A DNA stretch of 64,000 nt from Candidatus Parcubacteria bacterium (GTDB taxonomy: Bacteria > Patescibacteriota > Patescibacteriia > Patescibacteriales > UBA12075). Below are positions 3,632-62,170 of this stretch, in pieces (the first letter of the stretch is position 1; every line of letters begins with the position of its first letter). The notes beneath the pieces were generated by a model. It saw only the letters and a program-made list of their open reading frames with translations, was not told the origin of the DNA and did not search any database. The position numbers and the translations under genes are program-made. Location: NCBI GenBank assembly GCA_023132155.1, contig JAGLYP010000023.1, positions 11,504 through 75,503 of the forward strand, written 5' to 3'.

Positions 3632-3653
3632 TTTAAAATAAAGAAAATCCAAT

Positions 3654-3711
3654 ATTATAATTCGCATGTCCCGCATTTGTAGTTGCGGGTTCGCGAAGCG
3701 GATAACTTATG
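3654..3711 (+). repeat. Copy 1 of a conserved leader stem-loop element (a TATAAT-like box plus a hairpin), ending at the ATG of the downstream gene.
   Basis: ATTATAATTCGCATGTCCCGCATTTGTAGTTGCGGGTTCGCGAAGCGGATAACTTATG has the stem CCCGCA/TGCGGG. Three other copies lie at 59744-59813, 60061-60126 and 62118-62170. Confidence 0.6.
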
Positions 3712-5370
3712 GTAAATCCAAGTTTAAAAAAAATAGAAAAAAAGAGCTTAACCCCGACAATTGATGTTAAAAGGCTTTTTCAGATTATATATCGTGAACA
3801 GTCAAAGGCGGAAGAAAAAAAAGATGATGTTCCAAAGATTAATGTTTCGGAATTAGTTTCGAAAATGTCTTTTTATTATGAAAAAATAAGAAATACAGTT
3901 GATTATAAAGAGGAACACCTTCTCAGAAAAAACGCGATTGAAAGAATTATTAAAAGGCAAATTGTAATTGAAGGCACAATATCCCTAAAGGGCGCAGACA
4001 GTACGGAAATAGCCAGGCATTTATTAACTGAATTAATTAGGGCGGCATATTTATCTAATAATTCAGTACCTGAAACTAAAATTGATGAAGTTGCCGCGAT
4101 TATTCAAAAATATTTAGATTTAAAAAGGGCAATTGCCAAAATAAAAGGACGGAAATTGTCTGAAAGAAATGATTTGAATAATTGGATAATAGCTTTGGCG
4201 GCAAGCGATATTGAGCAGCATTTAGGCTTAAGCAAAATTAATCAAACAGTTGTTGATTACATGAACAAAATTTTGCTTAAGAATATTGAATTGCCTAGTA
4301 ATTCAGAGCATGAGAAAGACAAAGAAATTCAGATATTTTTAGGAATACATAGGCACTACCTGAAGTTTGACCGTGATATGATGAGTTTTATTCTTTTTAA
4401 ATATTATGTTGCCGGATGGAAGAATCCTGATCCGGCAAAAATTGAAGAAGTTGCCGCAAAAATCGTTTTTTTGCGGGGAGCAATCAACAAGCAGCTTGAA
4501 CATCCGCTGGTTAAGCAGCTTAATAGAATTATTAGCCGCTATACGGTTTTTTTTACGGTTTTAACCGATGTAATTAAAGAAAACCCAATCGCGGTTTATG
4601 AAAGTATTAAAAGAGATCCAAAGGTTTTTCCCAGGGATATAAAAAAAGCATGCCTCAAAAGATATGAAGAATCTTCTAAAAAATTGTGGCGCGCGGCGAC
4701 TAGAAGCATAATTTATATTTTTATTACAAAATCATTTTTTGCTGTTTTATTGGAGGTTCCGGCAACAAAATGGTTCGGTGAGGAAATAAATACGGTTTCT
4801 TTGATTATTAATATTGGTTTTCCGGCAATGCTTTTATTTTTTATAGTGTTATTTACTAAATTGCCGTCTGAGGATAATAGCAATAAAATTAAAGAAGGAA
4901 TTGAAGAAGTCGTTTTTGAGGAATATGAACGCAAAGAGCCGTTTAAATTGCGCGACCCGGCGCGCCGCAGCAAGAGCTTGGGATTCGTTTTTGGAATTTT
5001 ATATTTTATAACTTTTCTTTTTTCATTTGGGGCTGTTGTTTGGGCTTTAAATGAAATTAATTTTACTTGGCTAAGTATTATAATTTTTTTATTTTTCTTA
5101 ACATTTGTCAGCTTTTTCAGCATTCGTATCCGCAAAAACGCCCGCGATATGATTATTATTCCCCCGCGAGAGAATATTTTAAGTTTTATTATTGATTTTT
5201 TTTATATCCCGATAGCTGCCGTTGGCAAGTGGATGAGTGAAAAATTTTCCCAAGTAAATGTTTTTGTGTTTATTTTGGATTTTATAATAGAAGCTCCGTT
5301 TAAGATTTTTATTGAAATCGCCGAAGAATGGACCAGGTATGTGAAGGAGCGGAAGGAGGATATTGTGTAA
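3709..5370 (+). CDS. Hypothetical protein with a soluble N-terminal region and a polytopic C-terminal membrane domain.
   Basis: 553-aa ORF with multiple TM helices in the C-terminal half; no recognised motifs. Confidence 0.5.
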   Translation: MVNPSLKKIEKKSLTPTIDVKRLFQIIYREQSKAEEKKDDVPKINVSELVSKMSFYYEKIRNTVDYKEEHLLRKNAIERIIKRQIVIEGTISLKGADSTEIARHLLTELIRAAYLSNNSVPETKIDEVAAIIQKYLDLKRAIAKIKGRKLSERNDLNNWIIALAASDIEQHLGLSKINQTVVDYMNKILLKNIELPSNSEHEKDKEIQIFLGIHRHYLKFDRDMMSFILFKYYVAGWKNPDPAKIEEVAAKIVFLRGAINKQLEHPLVKQLNRIISRYTVFFTVLTDVIKENPIAVYESIKRDPKVFPRDIKKACLKRYEESSKKLWRAATRSIIYIFITKSFFAVLLEVPATKWFGEEINTVSLIINIGFPAMLLFFIVLFTKLPSEDNSNKIKEGIEEVVFEEYERKEPFKLRDPARRSKSLGFVFGILYFITFLFSFGAVVWALNEINFTWLSIIIFLFFLTFVSFFSIRIRKNARDMIIIPPRENILSFIIDFFYIPIAAVGKWMSEKFSQVNVFVFILDFIIEAPFKIFIEIAEEWTRYVKERKEDIV

Positions 5371-5373
5371 TAA

Positions 5374-5478
5374 TAATGCTAATAATGCGAATAAATGCTA
5401 ATCTGCGAATTGCGAATAAAATTTAACTTAAATTCGCAATTCGCAGATTAGCATTTATTTGCAGATTAGCATTATGCT
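5374..5478. repeat. About 100-bp near-perfect palindrome built from GCTAATCTGCGAAT words (AAATGCTAATCTGCGAATTGCGAAT...ATTCGCAATTCGCAGATTAGCATTT). It probably acts as a terminator or REP-like element.
   Basis: The inverted repeat is read directly from the sequence. Related copies lie at 14969-15018 and 15624-15750. Confidence 0.6.
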
Positions 5479-6238: not shown

Positions 6239-6285
6239 ATTTTAATTAAGAATTACGAATTACGAATTTTTTTTGAGCAAGTAAT

Positions 6286-10369: not shown

Positions 10370-10585
10370 TCACCTCCTTTATATATGTCCGAAATTAATA
10401 TTTAATATTGAATTCTAATTTCAAAGAACACGAAAAGAACATTATATCAAGATAATATACTATTAAAAATTTGTCAATAGCTGTTCCATTGCTGTTCCAT
10501 TGCTCAAAAACGATTTTTTTATTAAAATAGTAACAGTAATATAAAAATTAAATTTGTAGTTTGTTTCGGGCTTGGCGAAGCTATC

Positions 10586-10890
<305 letters not shown>

Positions 10891-10905
10891 GTTAAAAAAT
10901 AGCTT

Positions 10906-15018: not shown

Positions 15019-15115
15019 TTTATTAGTAGTTTTACGAACTGCTCCAATTTTGGGGCAGCGGTAAAATTGTTAAATCAATTACGAATTAAAATAATTCGTA
15101 ATTGATAATTTTTAA

Positions 15116-15622
15116 TTGAAAATTGAATGTATGGAGAATTTAATTGAAACATTTCATATTGATATAAAATTGCTAATAGCCCAAGTGATTAATTTTGCCA
15201 TTGTTTTCAGTGTTTTATATTTTTTTGCCTTAAAGCCGCTTCTTAAAGTTATGCGGGATAGAACTAAAAAAATTGAAAAAAGCATTGATGACGCGCAAAA
15301 AATAGAAAAAAAATTAAGCAGAACAGATGAAGAATACGACAAGGCAATTGGCAAAGCAAAAAAGGAAGCAAATATTATTATGGAAAAGGCAAATATTATG
15401 GCAGAAGAAAAAAGGCAGGATTTAATAAAAAAAGCCAAAAATGAAATAGGACAGATTATTAATAAAGAAAAAGAGCAAATGCAGGTTGAAAAAGCCAAGA
15501 CACTAAAAGAAATAAAAAAAGAAACAGCGGATTTGGTGGTCGTTTCTTTGGAAAAGATTTTGGAAGAGAAAGTTGATAATAAAAAAGATAGTGAGTTGAT
15601 TAGGAGGATGGTTAAAAAATAA
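15116..15622 (+). CDS. atpF: ATP synthase F0 subunit b.
   Basis: A single N-terminal TM followed by a long charged coiled coil. Confidence 0.85.
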   Translation: MKIECMENLIETFHIDIKLLIAQVINFAIVFSVLYFFALKPLLKVMRDRTKKIEKSIDDAQKIEKKLSRTDEEYDKAIGKAKKEANIIMEKANIMAEEKRQDLIKKAKNEIGQIINKEKEQMQVEKAKTLKEIKKETADLVVVSLEKILEEKVDNKKDSELIRRMVKK

Positions 15623-15623
15623 G

Positions 15624-15750
15624 TATAATGCTAATCTGGCGAATAAATGCTAATCTGCGAATTGCGAATGATATGTATTCGCGTATTAGCGATTAGCGGA
15701 TTGGCATTTATTAGCAGATTAGCATTTATTCGCCAGATTAGCATTACATC
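15624..15750. repeat. About 130-bp imperfect palindrome of GCTAATCTGCGAAT words between atpF and atpH.
   Basis: ATAATGCTAATCTGGCGAATAAATGCTAATCTGCGAATTGCGAAT...AGCAGATTAGCATTTATTCGCCAGATTAGCATTAC. The automatic ORF start at 15647 lies inside it. Confidence 0.6.
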
Positions 15751-16266: not shown

Positions 16267-17844
16267 ATGTCAAATACAAAAGATTTCATTGTAGAACAAT
16301 TAAAACGGCAAATTGCCGGTTTTAAGCATGAAATTAAAGAGCAAACCGTTGGCAAGGTTATTAAAATCGGAGACGGAATCGCTCAAATTTCCGGGCTTTC
16401 CGATGTTATGATGTCTGAAATGCTTGAATTCTCAAGCGGCAAAAAATCCGACCCCGCCTCTCGCGAGAAGCGGGGCGAAATCCGATATGGTGTGGCATTG
16501 AACTTGGAGGAAGATAGTATTGGCGCTATTATTTTGGGAGATTTTTTTGGCATAAAAGAAGGAGATGAAGTTAAGTCATTGAAAAAAATTTTAGAAGTTC
16601 CTGTCGGAAACAGCGTAGTCGGAAGAGTAGTTAATCCAATGGGGCAGCCGCTAGACGGAAAAGGAGAAATATTGGCTGATAAATTTTATCCGATAGAAAA
16701 AATCGCTCCGGGAGTAATCGCCCGCGAGTCAGTAAGCGAACCGGTGCAGACAGGAATAAAAGCGATTGACGCGATGATTCCGATTGGCCGCGGCCAGAGA
16801 GAATTGATTATCGGCGACCGCCAGATTGGCAAAACCGCGATTGCCATTGACGCGATAATAAGCCAAAAAGGCCAAAATATGAAATGCGTTTATGTGGCAA
16901 TCGGGCAGAAAGAGTCAAAAGTGGCAAATATCGCGGCTAAACTGGAAGAGCACGGAGCAATGGAATATACGACAATTGTTTTAGCGGGCGCTTCCGATCC
17001 GGCTTCATTCGCGTATATCGCGCCTTACGCGGGTTGCGCTATGGCGGAATATTTTTTGGACAAAGGCGAAGATGTTTTAATTGTTTATGACGATTTAAGC
17101 AAGCACGCCGTTGCTTACCGCGAAATTTCCTTGCTTTTGCGCAGGCCGCCTGGGCGCGAAGCTTATCCGGGGGATGTTTTTTATCTTCATTCAAGATTAT
17201 TAGAAAGAGCCTGTAAATTAAATAAAGATTTTGGCGGCGGGTCAATCACGGCGCTTCCTATTATTGAAACGCAGGCAGGAGATGTGTCCGCGTATATTCC
17301 CACAAATGTCATTTCAATTACTGACGGACAGATTTATTTAGAGCCGGATTTGTTTTATCAAGGCAATCGTCCGGCCGTGAATGCCGGTTTATCGGTTTCC
17401 CGTGTTGGTTCTGCGGCGCAGATTAAGGCCATGAAAAAAGTTGCCGGCAAGATGAGACTGGAAGCAGCGCAATATCGCGAGCTTGCCGCGTTTGCCCAGT
17501 TTGGGTCTGACTTAGACGAAGAAACAAAGAGTAAATTAGAAAGAGGAAAGCGTCTGGTGGAAATATTCAAGCAGGATCAATACAAAACAGTTCCCGTTGC
17601 CAATCAGGTATTAATATTTTTTGCAATAATTTCCGGTTTGCTGGATGATGTGTCGGTTGAAAAAATTTTAGAATTTGAAGAAGAATTAAATAAATACGCG
17701 GAAAACAGCGGACAGGATATATTAAAGGATATTGCGGAGAAAGGAGAGTTGAATGAAAAGTTGGAGGAGAGGATGAAGAAGTTGGTTGAGGATTATAAAA
17801 GTACATTGGATTATTTAGAAAAAGATATTTCCACCGCCCTTTAG
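16267..17844 (+). CDS. atpA: ATP synthase F1 alpha subunit, carrying a 14-aa in-frame insertion.
   Basis: GDRQIGKT Walker A, and near-identity to E. coli AtpA across the core. An extra [14 protein letters not shown] sits between the conserved SSG and [10 protein letters not shown]. Confidence 0.95.
16441..16482 (+). repeat. 42-nt palindromic repeat inserted in-frame within atpA (the intragenic copy of the CCCCGCCTCTCGCGAGAGGCGGGG terminator-hairpin family).
   Basis: AAAAAATCCGACCCCGCCTCTCGCGAGAAGCGGGGCGAAATC. The same core occurs as intergenic hairpins at 23805-23850, 26761-26784 and 57210-57239. It spans exactly codons 59-72 of atpA. Confidence 0.75.
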
Positions 17845-22070: not shown

Positions 22071-23744
<1,674 letters not shown>

Positions 23745-23804
23745 AATGATTTAGGATTTATGATTTAGGATTTATGGTATAAATTAAGAGTTGAAAGATA
23801 ATTT

Positions 23805-23850
23805 AAAAAATCCGCCCCGCCTCTCGCGAGAGGTCGGGGCGGATTTTTTG
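23805..23850 (+). terminator. Rho-independent terminator after groEL; the canonical intergenic copy of the CCCCGCCTCTCGCGAGAGG-CGGGG palindrome.
   Basis: AAAAAATCCGCCCCGCCTCTCGCGAGAGGTCGGGGCGGATTTTTT. Confidence 0.75.
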
Positions 23851-26743: not shown

Positions 26744-26760
26744 AAAAAGTGTATAAAATA

Positions 26761-26793
26761 CCCCGCCCCTCGCGAGGGGCGGGGTTATTTTTG
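26761..26793. terminator. Bidirectional terminator palindrome CCCCGCCCCTCGCGAGGGGCGGGG with a T-run.
   Basis: Perfect 10-bp stem between the convergent hup and HTH genes. Confidence 0.7.
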
Positions 26794-27111: not shown

Positions 27112-27123
27112 ATATTAATATTT

Positions 27124-27274
27124 AAGTCTAGGTTAGCCTAGACTAAAGTATTAAAAAAATCTAATATTAAGTATTTTTTATATTTAAGTCTAGGTTAGTG
27201 TGGACTAAAGTATTGAAAAAATAATATAAAATAATAATATTTTTTATCAAAGTCTAGGCTGGTATAGACTTAAG
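27124..27274. repeat. Three operator- or iteron-like imperfect palindromes (AAGTCTAGG-N-CCTAGACTAAAG) at an exact 63-bp period, immediately upstream of the HTH gene.
   Basis: Copies at 27124-27148, 27187-27210 and 27250-27274. Confidence 0.65.
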
Positions 27275-27317: not shown

Positions 27318-27550
27318 AGACCCCTTTTGTCATTCCCGACACACAATAGCCCCGCAGAGAAATTATATTAAATGATTGGGAATCTCTTTAAGAGCATCTA
27401 AACTATTTTTTAAAATAATTGTTAATATAATATTCTATTTACGTGTTTTGCTATTTTTTATGTTCGTGGTTTTTTACGAGATCTCCGATCATTTAATATA
27501 ATTTCCCTGCGGGGCTATTGTGTGTCGGAGATGACAAAAATAGGGGTTTT
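27318..27550. mobile_element. MITE-like element with ~70-bp terminal inverted repeats around a ~90-bp AT-rich core; no coding capacity.
   Basis: Left TIR AAGACCCCTTTTGTCATTCCCGACACACAATAGCCCCGCAGAGAAATTATATTAAATGATTGGGAATCT; the right TIR is its near-perfect reverse complement. A solo copy lies at 2196-2257. Confidence 0.65.
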
Positions 27551-27829: not shown

Positions 27830-28387
27830 ATGAGCGCTAAGCGAATTAAAGATAAAATTTTATATCTACGATTGAAGCAGAAAGACAAGGAGGCTTTTAT
27901 TAAAGCCTACGATAATTATATTAATGATATATATCGCTTTATATATTTCAAAGTAGGCAGTAAAGAAGATGCCGAGGACATTACCTCGCAAGTTTTTTTA
28001 AAGTCATGGGATTATATTCAAAATAATGATTTATTGGAATATAAAACCATAAAGGCGTTTTTTTATCGCGTAGCGCGGAATATCATAATTGATCATTATC
28101 GCGGCAAGAACACTCAGGCAAATATCAGTATTGATAACAAGGAAAATCAGATTGACATAATAGACGAAAAAGTTGATTTAGGCAAAGAAGTGGATTTAAA
28201 AAATGATATAAAAAATCTCCAACAAGCCATGCGGGAATTAAAAGATGAATATCGCGAAGTTTTGATGCTTAGGTATATAAATGAGTTATCCATCAAAGAA
28301 ATCGCGGAAATTCTTGATAAAAGCAAAGGCAATGTTCGCGTACTAATTTTTAGAGCAATCAAGGCATTGAAGAATATCGTGAATTAG
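27830..28387 (+). CDS. ECF-type RNA polymerase sigma-70 family factor.
   Basis: Region 2 (DITSQVFLKSW...ARNIIIDHYR) and region 4 (LSIKEIAEILDKSKGNVRVLIFRAIKALK). Confidence 0.85.
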   Translation: MSAKRIKDKILYLRLKQKDKEAFIKAYDNYINDIYRFIYFKVGSKEDAEDITSQVFLKSWDYIQNNDLLEYKTIKAFFYRVARNIIIDHYRGKNTQANISIDNKENQIDIIDEKVDLGKEVDLKNDIKNLQQAMRELKDEYREVLMLRYINELSIKEIAEILDKSKGNVRVLIFRAIKALKNIVN

Positions 28388-34413: not shown

Positions 34414-34486
34414 GCCGGCGTAGCTCAGTTGGTAGAGCAATGGTTTTGTAAACCATCGGTCGGGGGTTCGAGTCCCTTCGCCGGCT
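34414..34486 (+). tRNA. tRNA-Thr (anticodon UGU).
   Basis: GCCGGCG acceptor, GCTC/GAGC D-stem, anticodon loop TTTGTAA, T-loop TTCGAGT; 73 nt. Confidence 0.85.
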
Positions 34487-34487
34487 C

Positions 34488-34523
34488 AAATAAAATAAGT
34501 CTCTTTTGGGACTTATTTTATTT
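34488..34523 (+). terminator. Hairpin terminator after tRNA-Thr (AATAAAATAAGTC-tcttttg-GGACTTATTTTATTT).
   Basis: Read from the sequence. Confidence 0.6.
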
Positions 34524-34526
34524 GAG

Positions 34527-34560
34527 AGGTGAATGGGACTCGAACCCCTTTGACCAGTAT
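34527..34560 (-). repeat. Inverted tRNA-like fragment (GGGACTCGAACCCC, the complement of a T-arm).
   Basis: GGTGAATGGGACTCGAACCCCTTTGACCA. Confidence 0.4.
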
Positions 34561-37363: not shown

Positions 37364-37687
37364 ATGTTTTACATTTATTTACTAGAATGCCGACAAGACA
37401 AGTCTTGGTACATTGGCTATACTTCCGACTTAAAACGAAGGATAAACGATCATCAAAAAGGTTGCGGTTGCCGCACTACTTCCGCGAAAAATAACAAAGT
37501 TATCTCGCGGCAAGCCACGAAAAATGGTTTCGCCATCTCGCGGCAAGCTATGAAAAATAATTGGAAATTAATTTATTACGAAGCATACATAGAAAAGCAA
37601 GACGCTATTGGTAGAGAGAAATTTTTAAAAAGCGGATCGGGCAGGAAATATTTAAATAAGCAGTTAAGGAATTATTTATTAAAGTAG
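37364..37687 (+). CDS. GIY-YIG nuclease family protein (YhbQ/UPF0213-like) with an internal repeat-derived insertion.
   Basis: MFYIYLLECRQDKSWYIGYTSDLKRRINDHQKG...KLIYYEAY...REKFLKSGSGRKYLNKQL. The inserted segment ISRQATKNGFAISRQAMKNN is encoded by tandem ATCTCGCGGCAAGCCACGAAAAATGG units related to the tRNA-Gln 3' flank. Confidence 0.7.
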   Translation: MFYIYLLECRQDKSWYIGYTSDLKRRINDHQKGCGCRTTSAKNNKVISRQATKNGFAISRQAMKNNWKLIYYEAYIEKQDAIGREKFLKSGSGRKYLNKQLRNYLLK

Positions 37688-56757: not shown

Positions 56758-57057
56758 ATGCAAAAAAAAGGATACAATTTTTATGTATATATTATGGCAA
56801 GCACAAGCGGTACGATTTATATTGGGATGACAAATAATTTGGAAAGAAGAGTTATTGAACATAAAAAAGGAGTAATTAACGGCTTCTCAAAAAAATATTC
56901 ATGCAATAAGCTTATATATTATGAACATTATCAATATGTATATGATGCGATTAGTAGAGAAAAAGAAATTAAAAAATGGCGCAGAGAGAAAAAACAAAAA
57001 TTGGTTGCAAAATTAAATCCGCATTGGAATGATTTGTCAAAAGAATTGTTTATATGA
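56758..57057 (+). CDS. GIY-YIG nuclease family protein (YhbQ-like).
   Basis: FYVYIMASTSGTIYIGMTNNLERRVIEH...KLIYYE...REKEIKKW. Confidence 0.75.
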   Translation: MQKKGYNFYVYIMASTSGTIYIGMTNNLERRVIEHKKGVINGFSKKYSCNKLIYYEHYQYVYDAISREKEIKKWRREKKQKLVAKLNPHWNDLSKELFI

Positions 57058-57209
57058 CAAGAAAAATAAAAATCAATATTTTTGAAGAGGGAAATAGGAT
57101 GATGGATTTTGACATATAATTATTTTTGTATAATAATGTGTTTACGAGCATTGATGACAGGTTGCATAATCCGCATAGGCATAAATATCTATGCTACATT
57201 TGATTTTAT

Positions 57210-57239
57210 AAGCCCTGCCTCTCGCGAGAGGCAGGGCTT
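57210..57239 (+). terminator. Palindrome AAGCCCTGCCTCTCGCGAGAGGCAGGGCTT (a member of the CTCTCGCGAGAG-core hairpin family).
   Basis: Read from the sequence. Confidence 0.6.
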
Positions 57240-59527: not shown

Positions 59528-59743
59528 TATTAAATAATTATTTTATTTCTTTGAAAATAGCAATTTTTTACTTGACAATAAAATTATTTAGATATATAAT
59601 ATTTTTATAATATTCAAGTAAATTATTAAAATATTACCAATATTATTTTGGTAGAATTTTTAAATTTTGCCAATTTTTTTGTGTTTATTGAAAGCAATAA
59701 AATATTAATTTTAAAGTAAAGAAAAATTTCAATATTATCATTC

Positions 59744-59813
59744 GCATGTCCCGCACGTGTGCCGTTCTACGGTATTTGTAGGCGCGGGTTCGCGAAGCGA
59801 ATAACTTATTAAT
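59744..59813 (+). repeat. Copy 2 of the conserved leader stem-loop element (longer loop), ending at the infA ATG.
   Basis: ATTATCATTCGCATGTCCCGCACGTG...GGCGCGGGTTCGCGAAGCGAATAACTTATTAATG. Confidence 0.55.
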
Positions 59814-60054
59814 GACAAAAAAACAAGATAAAAAAACAGTAGATTCAAAAGAGTTTATTGAAGTAACGGGTGAGGTATTGGAATTAATGCCTGCCACAAC
59901 ATTTAAAGTTATGCTGGAAAACGGGCACGAAATATTGGCCCATCTTTCCGGACGAATGAGAATGCACAGGATTCGTTTATTGCCCGGCGATAAAGTAAAA
60001 GTGCAAATGAGTCCCTATGATTTAAGCAAGGGCAGAATTACATACAGAATGTAA
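59812..60054 (+). CDS. infA: Translation initiation factor IF-1.
   Basis: ...[49 protein letters not shown]. Confidence 0.9.
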
Positions 60055-60060
60055 TTCTTG

Positions 60061-60126
60061 TTAATATTATTATAATTCGCATGTCCCGTATTCGTAGTTG
60101 CGGGTTCGCGAAGCGAATAACCTATG
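60061..60126 (+). repeat. Copy 3 of the conserved leader stem-loop element, ending at the rpmJ ATG.
   Basis: TTAATATTATTATAATTCGCATGTCCCGTATTCGTAGTTGCGGGTTCGCGAAGCGAATAACCTATG. Confidence 0.6.
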
Positions 60127-60237
60127 AAAGTCAGAGCTTCGGTAAAAAAAATGTGTAAAGATTGCAAGATCATTCGCCGCAAAGGGCGCGTGATTGTTTT
60201 GTGCAAAAATCCGAAGCATAAACAAAGGCAGGGATAA
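60124..60237 (+). CDS. rpmJ: 50S ribosomal protein L36.
   Basis: [37 protein letters not shown], 37 aa; not in the supplied ORF track because it is under 60 aa. Confidence 0.9.
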
Positions 60238-60245
60238 ATTAATTT

Positions 60246-60300
60246 TAGATTTTAGATTTATGAATTATTTTATTAATTCAAAAATCATAAATCATAAATC
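60246..60300. repeat. Intergenic palindrome of GATTTATGA/TCATAAATC words.
   Basis: TTAGATTTATGAATTATTTTATTAATTCAAAAATCATAAATCATAAATCA. Confidence 0.45.
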
Positions 60301-61411: not shown

Positions 61412-61420
61412 TAATATATG

Positions 61421-61475
61421 ATTTTAGATTTATGATTTATGATTTTTATATCATAAATCCAAAATCTAAAATCTG
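61421..61475. repeat. Intergenic palindrome of GATTTATGATTT words (TTTAGATTTATGATTTATGA-tttttatat-CATAAATCCAAAATCTAAA).
   Basis: Read from the sequence. Confidence 0.45.
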
Positions 61476-61486
61476 AAATTCCAAAT

Positions 61487-62116
61487 ATGGCAAAAGATTT
61501 AAGTTCAAAATGTAAAAAGTGCCGCAGGGCGGGAGAAAAATTGTTTTTAAAGGGAGAACGCTGCAATACTCCGAAGTGCGCCATGGTAAAAAGAAATTAT
61601 CCGCCGGGATTTCATGGCTCAAAAGGAAGGCGCAGGATTACCGGCTATGGCGCGCAATTGAATGAAAAACAAAAAGCAAAGCGCCAATATAACTTGTTGG
61701 AAAAGCAATTTCGTTTGACTTTTGATAAAGCGCGGAAAAAAAGCGGAGATGCCGGTGAGAATTTTTTGCAATTTTTGGAAATGAGAATTGATAACGCAAT
61801 TTACCGTTCCGGCTTTGCTAGTTCGCGTCCTCAAGCAAGGCAATTGGTAAACCACGGGCATTTTGCGGTTAATGGCAAAAAGGTAACAATTCCATCCTAT
61901 ATTTTAAAAAGCGGAGATTTAATCGCGCTAAGAAAAACTAAAAAAGACTGCAAATTACATAAAATAATGCTGGATGCCTTGCAAAAAAAGGAAATTCCGG
62001 GGTGGATGAATTTTGATAAAGCCGAAAATACGGTAAAAATTTTACATAAACCCGGCATGGATATGATTAATCCGAATTTTGAGGTGCGGCAAATTATTGA
62101 ATATTATTCAAAATAA
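61487..62116 (+). CDS. rpsD: 30S ribosomal protein S4.
   Basis: An N-terminal Zn-ribbon-like CKKCRRAGEKLFLKGERCNTPKC and an S4 domain. Confidence 0.9.
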   Translation: MAKDLSSKCKKCRRAGEKLFLKGERCNTPKCAMVKRNYPPGFHGSKGRRRITGYGAQLNEKQKAKRQYNLLEKQFRLTFDKARKKSGDAGENFLQFLEMRIDNAIYRSGFASSRPQARQLVNHGHFAVNGKKVTIPSYILKSGDLIALRKTKKDCKLHKIMLDALQKKEIPGWMNFDKAENTVKILHKPGMDMINPNFEVRQIIEYYSK

Positions 62117-62117
62117 T

Positions 62118-62170
62118 GTTATCAGCTTCGCTGACCCGTCTCTACAAATACGGGACATGCGAATTATAAT
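62118..62170 (-). repeat. Copy 4 of the conserved leader stem-loop element, in inverted orientation between rpsD and rpoA.
   Basis: The reverse complement is ATTATAATTCGCATGTCCCGTATTTGTAGAGACGGGTCAGCGAAGCTGATAAC. Confidence 0.55.

Follow-up and report, generated by a model that had tools for sequence, protein, structure and literature searches.

An interspersed two-hairpin repeat of Patescibacteria with one end set at gene edges

What is a structured element that recurs flush with the start codons of unrelated genes, and what keeps it there? The question is raised by four copies of a hairpin element in a stretch of 64,000 nucleotides (nt) of Candidatus Parcubacteria bacterium (contig JAGLYP010000023.1, positions 11,504 to 75,503 of the forward strand), hereafter the window, which is AT-rich (36% G+C) and whose proteins have their nearest relatives in entries labelled Parcubacteria, Falkowbacteria or "Patescibacteria group". 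We find that the element folds into two hairpins, is widely distributed, is present in some genomes and absent from others at orthologous sites, sets one particular end against gene ends and adjoins a diverse set of genes. On balance, we lean towards reading it as a small, non-autonomous and recently mobile repeat of Patescibacteria and phages, which places its second hairpin and ATAAC end against the edge of a gene product and is kept as a boundary structure of the transcript.

All four copies lie where a sequence-only reading of this DNA had placed them, with cores that run from ATTCG to AAC. The 14-mer ATTCGCATGTCCCG occurs four times in the window against 0.43 expected occurrences, a count reached by none of 100 shuffles. 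When a covariation model, of the kind that had been proposed as a check, was built and scanned over the 64 kb, the four copies scored 65-76 bits and the next match 10 bits, indicating discrete copies with no degenerate halo. Copies 1-3 precede real ATG codons, as had been claimed, with gaps of 2, 6 and 2 nt to the gene of a 553-amino-acid protein, infA and rpmJ (MKVRASVKK), respectively. Copy 4 is inverted between rpsD and rpoA, and its location could be refined: its AAC end lies 1 nt past the rpsD stop codon, and it is a member of a class of reverse copies behind stop codons that we describe below.

The fold differs from the one first drawn, in which an outer stem enclosed an inner one. The element is instead two adjacent hairpins, P1 and P2, within a core of ~46 nt that consists of a 5' tail (ATTCGNATGT), P1, P2 and a 3' ATAAC. 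Its consensus reads A-TTCG-N-ATGT, then P1 (5 bp, with a loop of ATTYGTAG plus 1-2 nt), then P2 (5-7 bp, with a GAA loop closed by C-G) and TAAC, and the 5' flank carried along with the core ranges from 6-12 nt up to a box of ~27 nt. P2 had gone unseen in the sequence-only reading; it became apparent since two pattern-free bases after CGGGT always match two bases after GCGAAGC (TC/GA, GC/GC, CG/CG, CA/TG). The copies in the window, together with candidate remnants, are laid out as follows:

3660-3706, + strand: copy 1 core, 76 bits, with the 5' tail ATTCGCATGT at 3660-3669
3670-3674 paired with 3685-3689, + strand: copy 1 P1, loop ATTTGTAGTT
3690-3694 paired with 3698-3702, + strand: copy 1 P2, with one U·G pair and the GAA loop at 3695-3697
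3703-3706, + strand: copy 1 3' end, TAAC, followed by TT and the ATG at 3709
3632-3659, + strand: copy 1 upstream box, AAAATAAAGAAAATCCAATATTATA, of the long form of the unit, common to copy 2 and many Falkowbacteria-type copies (AAGTAAAGGAATTTCAATATTnnTA)
59740-59805, + strand: copy 2 core with a 19-nt insert (59755-59773) in the P1 loop, 65.5 bits
59750-59754 paired with 59784-59788, + strand: copy 2 P1
59789-59793 paired with 59797-59801, + strand: copy 2 P2, followed by TAAC at 59802-59805 and the infA ATG at 59812
59714-59739, + strand: copy 2 upstream box, AAGTAAAGAAAAATTTCAATATTATC, which belongs to the inserted segment by comparison with a related locus (L167)
60075-60121, + strand: copy 3 core, 74.8 bits
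60085-60089 paired with 60100-60104, + strand: copy 3 P1, with one U·G pair
60105-60109 paired with 60113-60117, + strand: copy 3 P2, followed by TAAC at 60118-60121, CT and the rpmJ ATG at 60124
62118-62164, - strand: copy 4 core, reversed, 72.4 bits, with its AAC end (62118) 1 nt past the rpsD stop codon at 62114-62116
62122-62126 paired with 62130-62134, - strand: copy 4 P2
62135-62139 paired with 62150-62154, - strand: copy 4 P1
62117-62176, - strand: whole segment inserted in the rpsD-rpoA spacer, ~11-12 nt of 5' flank (CTTAAATTATA) plus the core plus 1 nt
10552-10629, + strand: candidate decayed fragments of the family in a long non-coding stretch, ATTTGTAGT..GGCGAAGC.. then ATTCGTATGT..GATAAAC, 7.8 bits

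Here and below, L-numbers denote loci fetched from other genomes or contigs. To judge from sequence similarity, the fragments at 10552-10629 are probably, if weakly so, decayed members of the same repeat family. The non-coding stretch that holds them (10370-10905) also contains the tail of a reading frame resembling a phosphoenolpyruvate-utilising enzyme, probably a pseudogene remnant.

Support for the two stems comes from 119 model-aligned copies from other genomes. There, 97.8% of cells are paired, compensatory double changes occur in nine of the ten pairs, and the covariation score reaches 0.504 compared to 0.137 when shuffled (0 of 500 shuffles attain the observed value) and at most 0.047 when partners are slid. 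P1 occurs as CCCGC/GCGGG, CCGGC/GCCGG, CCCCC/GGGGG, GCCCC/GGGGC, GCGGC/GCCGC, CCTGC/GCAGG and other variants, and P2 as TTCGC/GCGAA, TTGCC/GGCAA, TCCCC/GGGGA, TCCGCC/GGCGGA, TCCATC/GATGGA and others. What stays constant is the C-G pair that closes the GAA loop of P2 (kept in ~97% of copies, with the rest of the stem free to vary) and a nearly invariant GTAG inside the P1 loop, 1-2 nt before the P1 3' strand. The variation previously noticed at the fifth pair of the inner stem (C-G, U·G and U-A) was correctly read, and so was the varying loop length: what lengthens the loop in the infA copy is an insert of 19 nt, which folds into a small hairpin of its own and recurs in L003, and an extra small hairpin in the P1 loop defines a subfamily that includes window copy 2, L003, L019, L058 and L079. 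The outer UUCGC/GCGAA stem, on the other hand, can be drawn but is not the fold that evolution has kept, as its GCGAA belongs to the covarying P2 (T-NN-GC GAA GC-N'N'-A). Four of its pairs are invariant and the fifth, the sole variable one, is unpaired in 29% (association of G7 with C128, p = 0.053), which neither backs nor excludes it as an alternative fold. For a possible loop-loop pseudoknot of UUYG with CGAA, the sole variation is C/U opposite G. An upstream open reading frame (ORF) from the ATG inside the 5' tail was dropped, as its frame shifts with 1-nt length variants and it is non-coding.

The element extends well beyond this genome. A one-genome-per-species scan, using a pattern with two free positions, recovered it from at least 24 species-representative assemblies (38 loci), mostly Falkowbacteria, Parcubacteria and Moranbacteria, and a looser metagenome scan that fixed the unpaired motifs only recovered it from at least 120 metagenome contigs, with 85 distinct cores among the matches listed. 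It is also present in four IMG/VR contigs, and the phage-region loci that contain it bear head, protease, connector and tail genes. Rfam release 15 gave no match to the element at the gathering threshold, the sole matches in the window being three tRNAs (there is no rRNA in it), and a permissive Rfam scan of 59650-60250 returned chance-level matches of the small nucleolar RNA type only. A literature search by sequence and keyword found no description of the element. We class it as an interspersed hairpin repeat, unusual in that it targets gene ends, for which we found no published account. Further occurrences come from assemblies labelled Desulfosarcina (L027, a 2.6-Mb contig), Bdellovibrionales and Gammaproteobacteria (L027, L004, L010, L002, L014 and L033), where the flanks have 39-50% G+C; L027 and L033 share the Patescibacteria-type upstream box, and L002 and L014 have tandem copies. 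These assemblies may include mis-binned contigs or reflect true transfers.

Next, we consider where the copies lie relative to genes, for the 147 full copies with enough flank; gene calls are simple ORF calls and the copies are not phylogenetically independent. In 53 of the 147, the AAC end precedes a real ATG on the same strand, with gaps that peak at 2 nt (21 copies), against 4 copies at 0 nt, 13 at 1 nt and 9 at 3 nt, and eight more at 4-7 nt. The same end lies behind the stop codon of an opposite-strand gene in another 20, at -1 to +2 nt with a peak at 1 nt, the genes concerned including ftsZ (in two genomes), rplQ, ssb, infC and rpsD of the window. Stable RNAs are adjoined as well: the mature 5' end of transfer-messenger RNA (tmRNA) is 2 nt from the AAC end in four copies (L108, L127, L145, L070), and one rRNA operon reads, in order, the 23S end, 9 nt, a reversed copy, a forward copy, 16 nt and 5S. 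Close neighbours of the ATTCG end amount to only four starts and four stops, and distances from it are evenly spread. Some copies sit inside operons with almost no upstream spacer. The 53 genes directly downstream match 84 Pfam families and include ABC ATPases, NrdR, L24, L4, SecA, SecDF, RpoC, GyrB, a DEAD-box helicase, RNase HII and ArgRS.

Divergent, tail-to-tail pairs of copies, 43-135 nt apart, also occur between two co-directional genes or RNAs (L025, 1777-1918; L054, 206-437). Each member is flush with its own neighbour, namely a gene stop and the rpsL start in L025 and the 23S end and the 5S start in L054, and the stems of the two members differ.

The mobility of the unit, which had been proposed from the four copies, can be examined at orthologous sites. 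Orthologous regions were fetched through S4 proteins (91, 84, 74 and 66% identity) and homologues of the 553-amino-acid protein (90, 86 and 71%), and all four window sites proved empty in relatives whose flanking proteins are 66-91% identical. The copy 1 site is empty in L171, L172 and L173, and copy 2 is absent upstream of infA in L167, L169 and L170. In L167 and L168, just 15-21 nt separate infA from rpmJ, and the element is missing there from all of L167-L170. The rpsD-rpoA spacer is 84 nt long in the window compared to 25 nt in L167 and 31 nt in L168, with cleanly aligning flanks, and copy 4 appears as a clean insertion of ~59 nt (11 nt + core + 1 nt) relative to L167. At rpmJ and infA, the insertions took the place of the final 10-17 nt ahead of the ATG. 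What was inserted ends sharply at ATAAC and varies at its 5' end (short, or with the ~27-nt box), and the synteny of the flanking housekeeping genes is conserved. Elsewhere, copies occur in tandem (L002, L014, L063), as inverted pairs, and nested in the loop of a terminator hairpin (L065, L074, L123). The only pattern in the flank after AAC is N-T-W, with T at +2 in 72%. The 553-amino-acid protein itself (3709-5370) counts over 1000 homologues in Falkowbacteria and Parcubacteria (E ≤ 1e-40), with no Pfam domain recorded among the 120 homologues listed.

An ATTCGYAGT motif before the ATG in L171 and L172 was considered as an excision scar and dropped, as ATTCG(C/T)A-type strings are general intergenic words there, and no association of the element with tRNAs was found. 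The window holds two small stand-alone GIY-YIG nuclease genes (37364-37687 and 56758-57057), a family that accounts for 6 of 883 ORFs neighbouring the element elsewhere and whose association with it would be hypothetical. On the reverse strand, the P1 loop reads ACTACGA, which may resemble the nick site of pMV158-type plasmids.

Whether the hairpins act as RNA or as DNA can be approached through their imperfect pairs. Overall, pairs are 98% Watson-Crick and G·T is hardly commoner than A·C, a strictness that is uncommon for an RNA element and would fit DNA hairpins or folding in both orientations. However, when read in the sense of the adjoining gene, the non-Watson-Crick pairs comprise eight GT against one AC in the start class and no GT against two AC in the stop class (Fisher p = 0.055, from only 11 events among related copies), and the 5S and 23S copies show the same trend. 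That these mismatches are G·U along the strand of the neighbouring gene suggests to us that a role in the adjacent transcript has preserved the hairpins. The unpaired motifs, for their part, probably serve the machinery that moves the element. Non-coding DNA shows a 5-fold enrichment of ATTCG(C/T)A words, which occur as arrays in many loci; as general intergenic words, they may be read by a common host factor. In the window, intergenic arrays or palindromes of 7-10-nt words (ATTCGCA, ATTCGTAG, AATGCTAATCTGCGAAT, AATTACGAATT) are found at 5368-5463, 15620-15746, 6240-6273 and 15088-15121, and similar arrays in L049, L097, L107, L130, L147 and L156; other Patescibacteria have a recurrent ~40-nt block, ATTCGTAGATTCGCATTCATTCGTTGATTCGAATCGG, upstream of genes. 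These arrays and the block may be binding sites for a common host factor.

Taken together, the placement of the ATAAC end at gene edges suggests that the element is transcribed with the neighbouring gene, and two stable hairpins would then be set at the extreme 5' or 3' edge of the functional part of a transcript. Movement could proceed through a single-stranded-DNA (HUH-type) or a reverse-transcription route, with recognition of the invariant unpaired motifs by a trans-acting enzyme. After insertion, the hairpins may be retained as a boundary structure that protects or defines RNA ends and stands in for the native short untranslated region; from this we infer a role of boundary hairpins in RNA stability or processing.

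A number of observations weigh against this account of a mobile repeat retained as a boundary structure. Close to half of the copies (70 of 147, ~48%) adjoin no recognised gene end, and it is hard to see how an insertion into DNA would find the edge of a coding region or tmRNA so exactly; rapid selection after random insertion could produce the edge placement instead. As to movement, the element has neither terminal inverted repeats (the sole end-to-end complementarity, ATTCGC/GCGAAT, is lost where the P2 stem differs) nor a target-site duplication, with no flank k-mer identity clearly above permutation at any fixed offset (best z = 4.4 in 336 tests, offsets inconsistent) and none seen when the filled site of copy 4 is compared with empty ones. 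Among the 20 window ORFs scanned, none could be linked to it as a transposase, HUH nuclease or reverse transcriptase, and clustering of the 883 neighbouring ORFs gave no recurrent mobility-enzyme candidate. At tmRNA and at the ftsZ stop, the element found in one genome differs in its stems from that in another, which could reflect long vertical retention and function instead of mobility. The small number of wobble events likewise counts on this side, as does the fact that the search patterns fixed part of the unpaired motifs, which partly imposes their invariance; model-found copies outside those patterns nevertheless keep these motifs.

Which other explanations could account for the data? The sequence-only reading had seen a TATAAT-like box and proposed a mobile promoter plus structured 5' untranslated region (UTR), in which a sigma-70-type promoter just upstream of ATTCG gives a new transcription start and a structured leader. 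Part of this stands: the unit is mobile, lies in front of unrelated genes and provides a structured 5' leader in the start-codon class; the box is present in the window copies, where TATAAT or TATCAT ends 1 nt before ATTCG and the TTTAAA-17-TATTAT of copy 2 scores 9/12; the long form has a conserved box containing CAATATT; and -10-like boxes lie 3-10 nt upstream of the element at tmRNA loci, where the element would consequently be transcribed. The promoter itself, however, is weak. Promoter-like hexamers are limited to the window copies, no -10 or -35 is conserved in 156 copies (upstream information is at most 0.14 bit at every position except -2), and the upstream box shows up at similar rates whether a copy is of the start, stop or another class, which makes it part of the repeat as opposed to the downstream gene, and behind stops it would result in antisense RNA. 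Some copies directly follow a terminator hairpin or an upstream gene and have no AT-rich box (L018), the covarying stems are left unexplained, and copy 2 lies ~140 nt downstream of a perfect TTGACA-17-TATAAT infA promoter and a conserved leader. We thus give a mobile promoter only a small chance of being the explanation. On the + strand, the copy 4 segment makes a promoter-like TCTACA-18-TATAAT (62141-62170) that faces rpoA in a promoter scan, and sigma-70, sigma-54 or extracytoplasmic function (ECF) promoters inside the element and firing at the ATG were rejected, their hexamers being in covarying stems or at the wrong distance. The infA promoter (sigma-70 type, 59572-59600) is followed by a leader of ~100 nt (..ATTACCAATATTATTTTGGTAGAATTTTTAAATTTTGCCAATTTTTTTGTGTTTA..; whole region 59572-59712) that is conserved upstream of infA in L167, L169 and L170 and matches no Rfam family; this ATTACCAATATTATTTTGGTAGAATTTTTAAATTTTGCCAATTTTTTTGTGTTTA leader, not the repeat, is a candidate regulatory leader of the infA-rpmJ-rpsM operon. 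The proposal that the repeat serves as a ribosomal-protein or initiation factor 1 (IF-1) autoregulatory leader, or as any other gene-specific cis-regulatory RNA or riboswitch, can draw on the conserved covarying structure with its invariant unpaired bases and on copies before infA, rpmJ and the membrane-protein gene in the window and before rpsL and rplX elsewhere. It fails on the 84 Pfam families downstream, on the tmRNA and 5S copies, on the absence of the element at the infA and rpmJ sites of relatives, on the roughly one in seven copies that are reversed behind stop codons, and on tandem copies, phage genomes and the lack of an Rfam match; for riboswitches, the gene set is incoherent, there is no U-tract terminator and, again, reversed copies follow stops. 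We consider such a regulator very improbable. The same reading had been right that the element is not a classical terminator, since it has no U-tract (P2 is followed by AUAAC and, in the reverse sense, P1 by ACAUNCGAAU), and a terminator scan gave a single weak site that borrows its T's from rpsD.

Three other explanations start from the fold. In RNA punctuation, a structure-reading endonuclease would cut a few nt outside the base of P2, on the ATAAC side and in either orientation, which we hold to be possible though rather unlikely. Its products, at similarly modest odds, would be leaderless mRNAs starting at or near the AUG, mRNAs ending just past the stop codon, and trimmed tmRNA and rRNA precursors. 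A variant to which we also grant a minor share of belief has a host nuclease measure from P2 while the mobile repeat is moved by a single-stranded-DNA or reverse-transcription route, giving the sharp ATAAC end and the ragged 5' end. Punctuation is the best fit to the tmRNA, rRNA, start and stop data: one end adjoins starts, stops and the tmRNA 5' end (at exactly 2 nt) and comes near the 23S and 5S ends, the narrow gap peaks (2 nt at starts, 1 nt at stops) are as expected if a distance is measured out, a Shine-Dalgarno sequence is missing from most genes of this genome, the hairpins are maintained, in either orientation, as read along the flanking gene, and intra-operon copies have almost no spacer upstream. 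However, we know of no nuclease that measures in this way from a 5-7-bp hairpin, tmRNA 5' ends are made by RNase P whatever lies upstream, the 5S and 23S gaps (16 and 9 nt) are not flush, about half of the copies are away from gene ends, and close relatives do without the element at the same sites. If P2 and AUAAC, ~6 nt before the AUG, instead docked or positioned the small ribosomal subunit in place of a Shine-Dalgarno duplex, the spacing to the AUG would be constrained, and the AAC-ATG gaps are indeed distributed like ribosome-binding-site spacing; the element also lies further upstream where a Shine-Dalgarno sequence is present (L009, L154), and the native 10-17 nt were replaced at rpmJ and infA without loss of essential genes. 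Yet a stable hairpin this near to the AUG is normally inhibitory, and the stop-class, tmRNA and 5S copies, along with the 48% elsewhere, are left unexplained, which makes a translation-initiation module unlikely in our view. P2 might also act in single-stranded DNA, as a C-GAA-G mini-hairpin for priming or as a hairpin promoter, with P1 offering a GTAG/CTAC nick site to an HUH enzyme. The 98% of Watson-Crick pairs, with G·T hardly above A·C, and the ~97% retention of the C-G closing pair in an otherwise free stem would fit, as would published precedents: GCGAAGC and CCGAAGG mini-hairpins form the promoters of the phage N4 virion polymerase (a 5-bp stem with a loop of GAA or GGA) and, at ssiA, the priming site of RepB', as reviewed previously, and GTAG is the tag cut by transposases associated with repetitive extragenic palindromic (REP) sequences. 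Against this, the 20 window ORFs and 883 neighbouring ORFs examined gave no gene for such a polymerase or primase or for an HUH enzyme, GTAG is in a loop as opposed to the foot of the hairpin in REPs, the strand-specific wobble points to RNA, and placement at start and stop codons is unexplained; we consider a DNA signal quite unlikely. The promoter, ribosome-docking and DNA-signal explanations each cover just part of the data.

Among known systems, REP sequences and REPINs, which are mobilised by transposases related to IS200/IS605, are the nearest kind, yet three of their defining features fail here or were not found in the ORFs scanned. The likenesses are considerable: short GC-rich intergenic hairpin repeats in many copies, without terminal inverted repeats or target duplications, occurring singly, in tandem and as inverted pairs, with a conserved GTAG; REPs also tend to share a transcript with the gene upstream, and a role as RNA hairpins is proposed for them. 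REP/REPIN sequences are, however, defined by GTAG (or CGTC) at one end of the palindrome, whereas the element has it in the P1 loop. A REP is a single imperfect palindrome of 20-40 nt, compared to a 46-nt core of two unrelated, independently covarying hairpins with invariant tails; each species or genus has REP sequences of its own, while the unpaired motifs of the element are constant across the phylum; and REPs are mostly downstream of genes, while the element is most often flush before starts and always turns the same end towards the gene. No REP-associated tyrosine transposase (RAYT, of the Y1 HUH type) was present in the 20 window ORFs, nor did one form a recurrent cluster in the 883 neighbouring ORFs. 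Elements derived from IS200/IS605 have a fixed tetra- or pentanucleotide target and TnpA; here, the flank shows only N-T-W, and no TnpA was seen among the ORFs scanned.

Transposable elements of the miniature inverted-repeat class (MITEs), such as Correia of Neisseria and RUP/BOX of pneumococcus, likewise are non-autonomous, are co-transcribed with adjacent genes, can contain promoter-like sequences and fold as RNA, but they are at least 100-150 nt long with terminal inverted repeats and a TA target duplication, both of which the element lacks, and are not known for its nucleotide-precise one-sided placement. In mitochondrial tRNA punctuation, a structured element adjoins the start, the stop or the end of a stable RNA, an antisense version can serve, and mRNAs are without untranslated regions. 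The analogy, to which leaderless tRNA transcription in Nanoarchaeum can be added, is functional only, as the element is not tRNA-like, is optional and mobile, and its cleavage here is hypothetical. P2 is exactly of the kind of the DNA mini-hairpins of N4 and plasmids (5-7-bp stem, GAA triloop, C-G closing pair), but those act in single-stranded DNA with dedicated polymerases or primases, whereas the element lies in the chromosomal intergenic DNA of many genes. Finally, an integron attC site is a single imperfect hairpin with R''/L''...L'/R' boxes, arrayed by an integrase, and the element, with two hairpins, dispersed copies and conserved synteny, is not one.

The window contains other repeats as well. 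GC-rich CCCCGCCTCTCGCGAGAGGCGGGG hairpins flanked by A/T runs (16442-16475, 23805-23838, 26751-26784 and 57203-57236) look like ordinary bidirectional terminators of this genome, with no relation to the element. GATTTATGA-like units form short tandem arrays (417-449, 23741-23785, 60241-60300, 61413-61480) at nine places in non-coding DNA and at none in coding DNA, several of them in spacers of the ribosomal-protein cluster. The 3' part of a tRNA-Thr gene (34414-34487) is repeated in inverted form 8 nt downstream (34463-34548; 39-nt arms, 85% complementary), which could be an integration scar or a decayed tRNA. A 67-nt inverted repeat (27325-27539; 88% complementary, arms 81 nt apart) adjoins a 46-nt direct repeat (27115-27222), and both are found in the non-coding stretch that precedes the gene of an ECF sigma factor (27830-28387).

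A large part of bacterial diversity falls to the Patescibacteria, and the organisation of their transcription, RNA processing and translation is nearly undescribed. Within this setting, the repeat stands out through its phylum-constant signature, its recent movement and its nucleotide-precise placement at edges. Sequence native to the region before essential genes (rpmJ, infA, rpsL) has been replaced harmlessly, which amounts to a natural experiment on the surroundings of start and stop codons. The element also offers a searchable marker with which to find the enzyme that reads it, to follow populations of uncultured bacteria at the strain level and to re-examine gene starts. If its placement is set by the insertion mechanism, such targeting of gene ends would be of a kind not known among bacterial mobile elements; if it is set by selection, the repeat would be a portable, orientation-dependent module for RNA ends. 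And if punctuation were true, Patescibacteria, with few Shine-Dalgarno sequences and tiny genomes, would be using a spreading repeat to define the ends of their transcripts.

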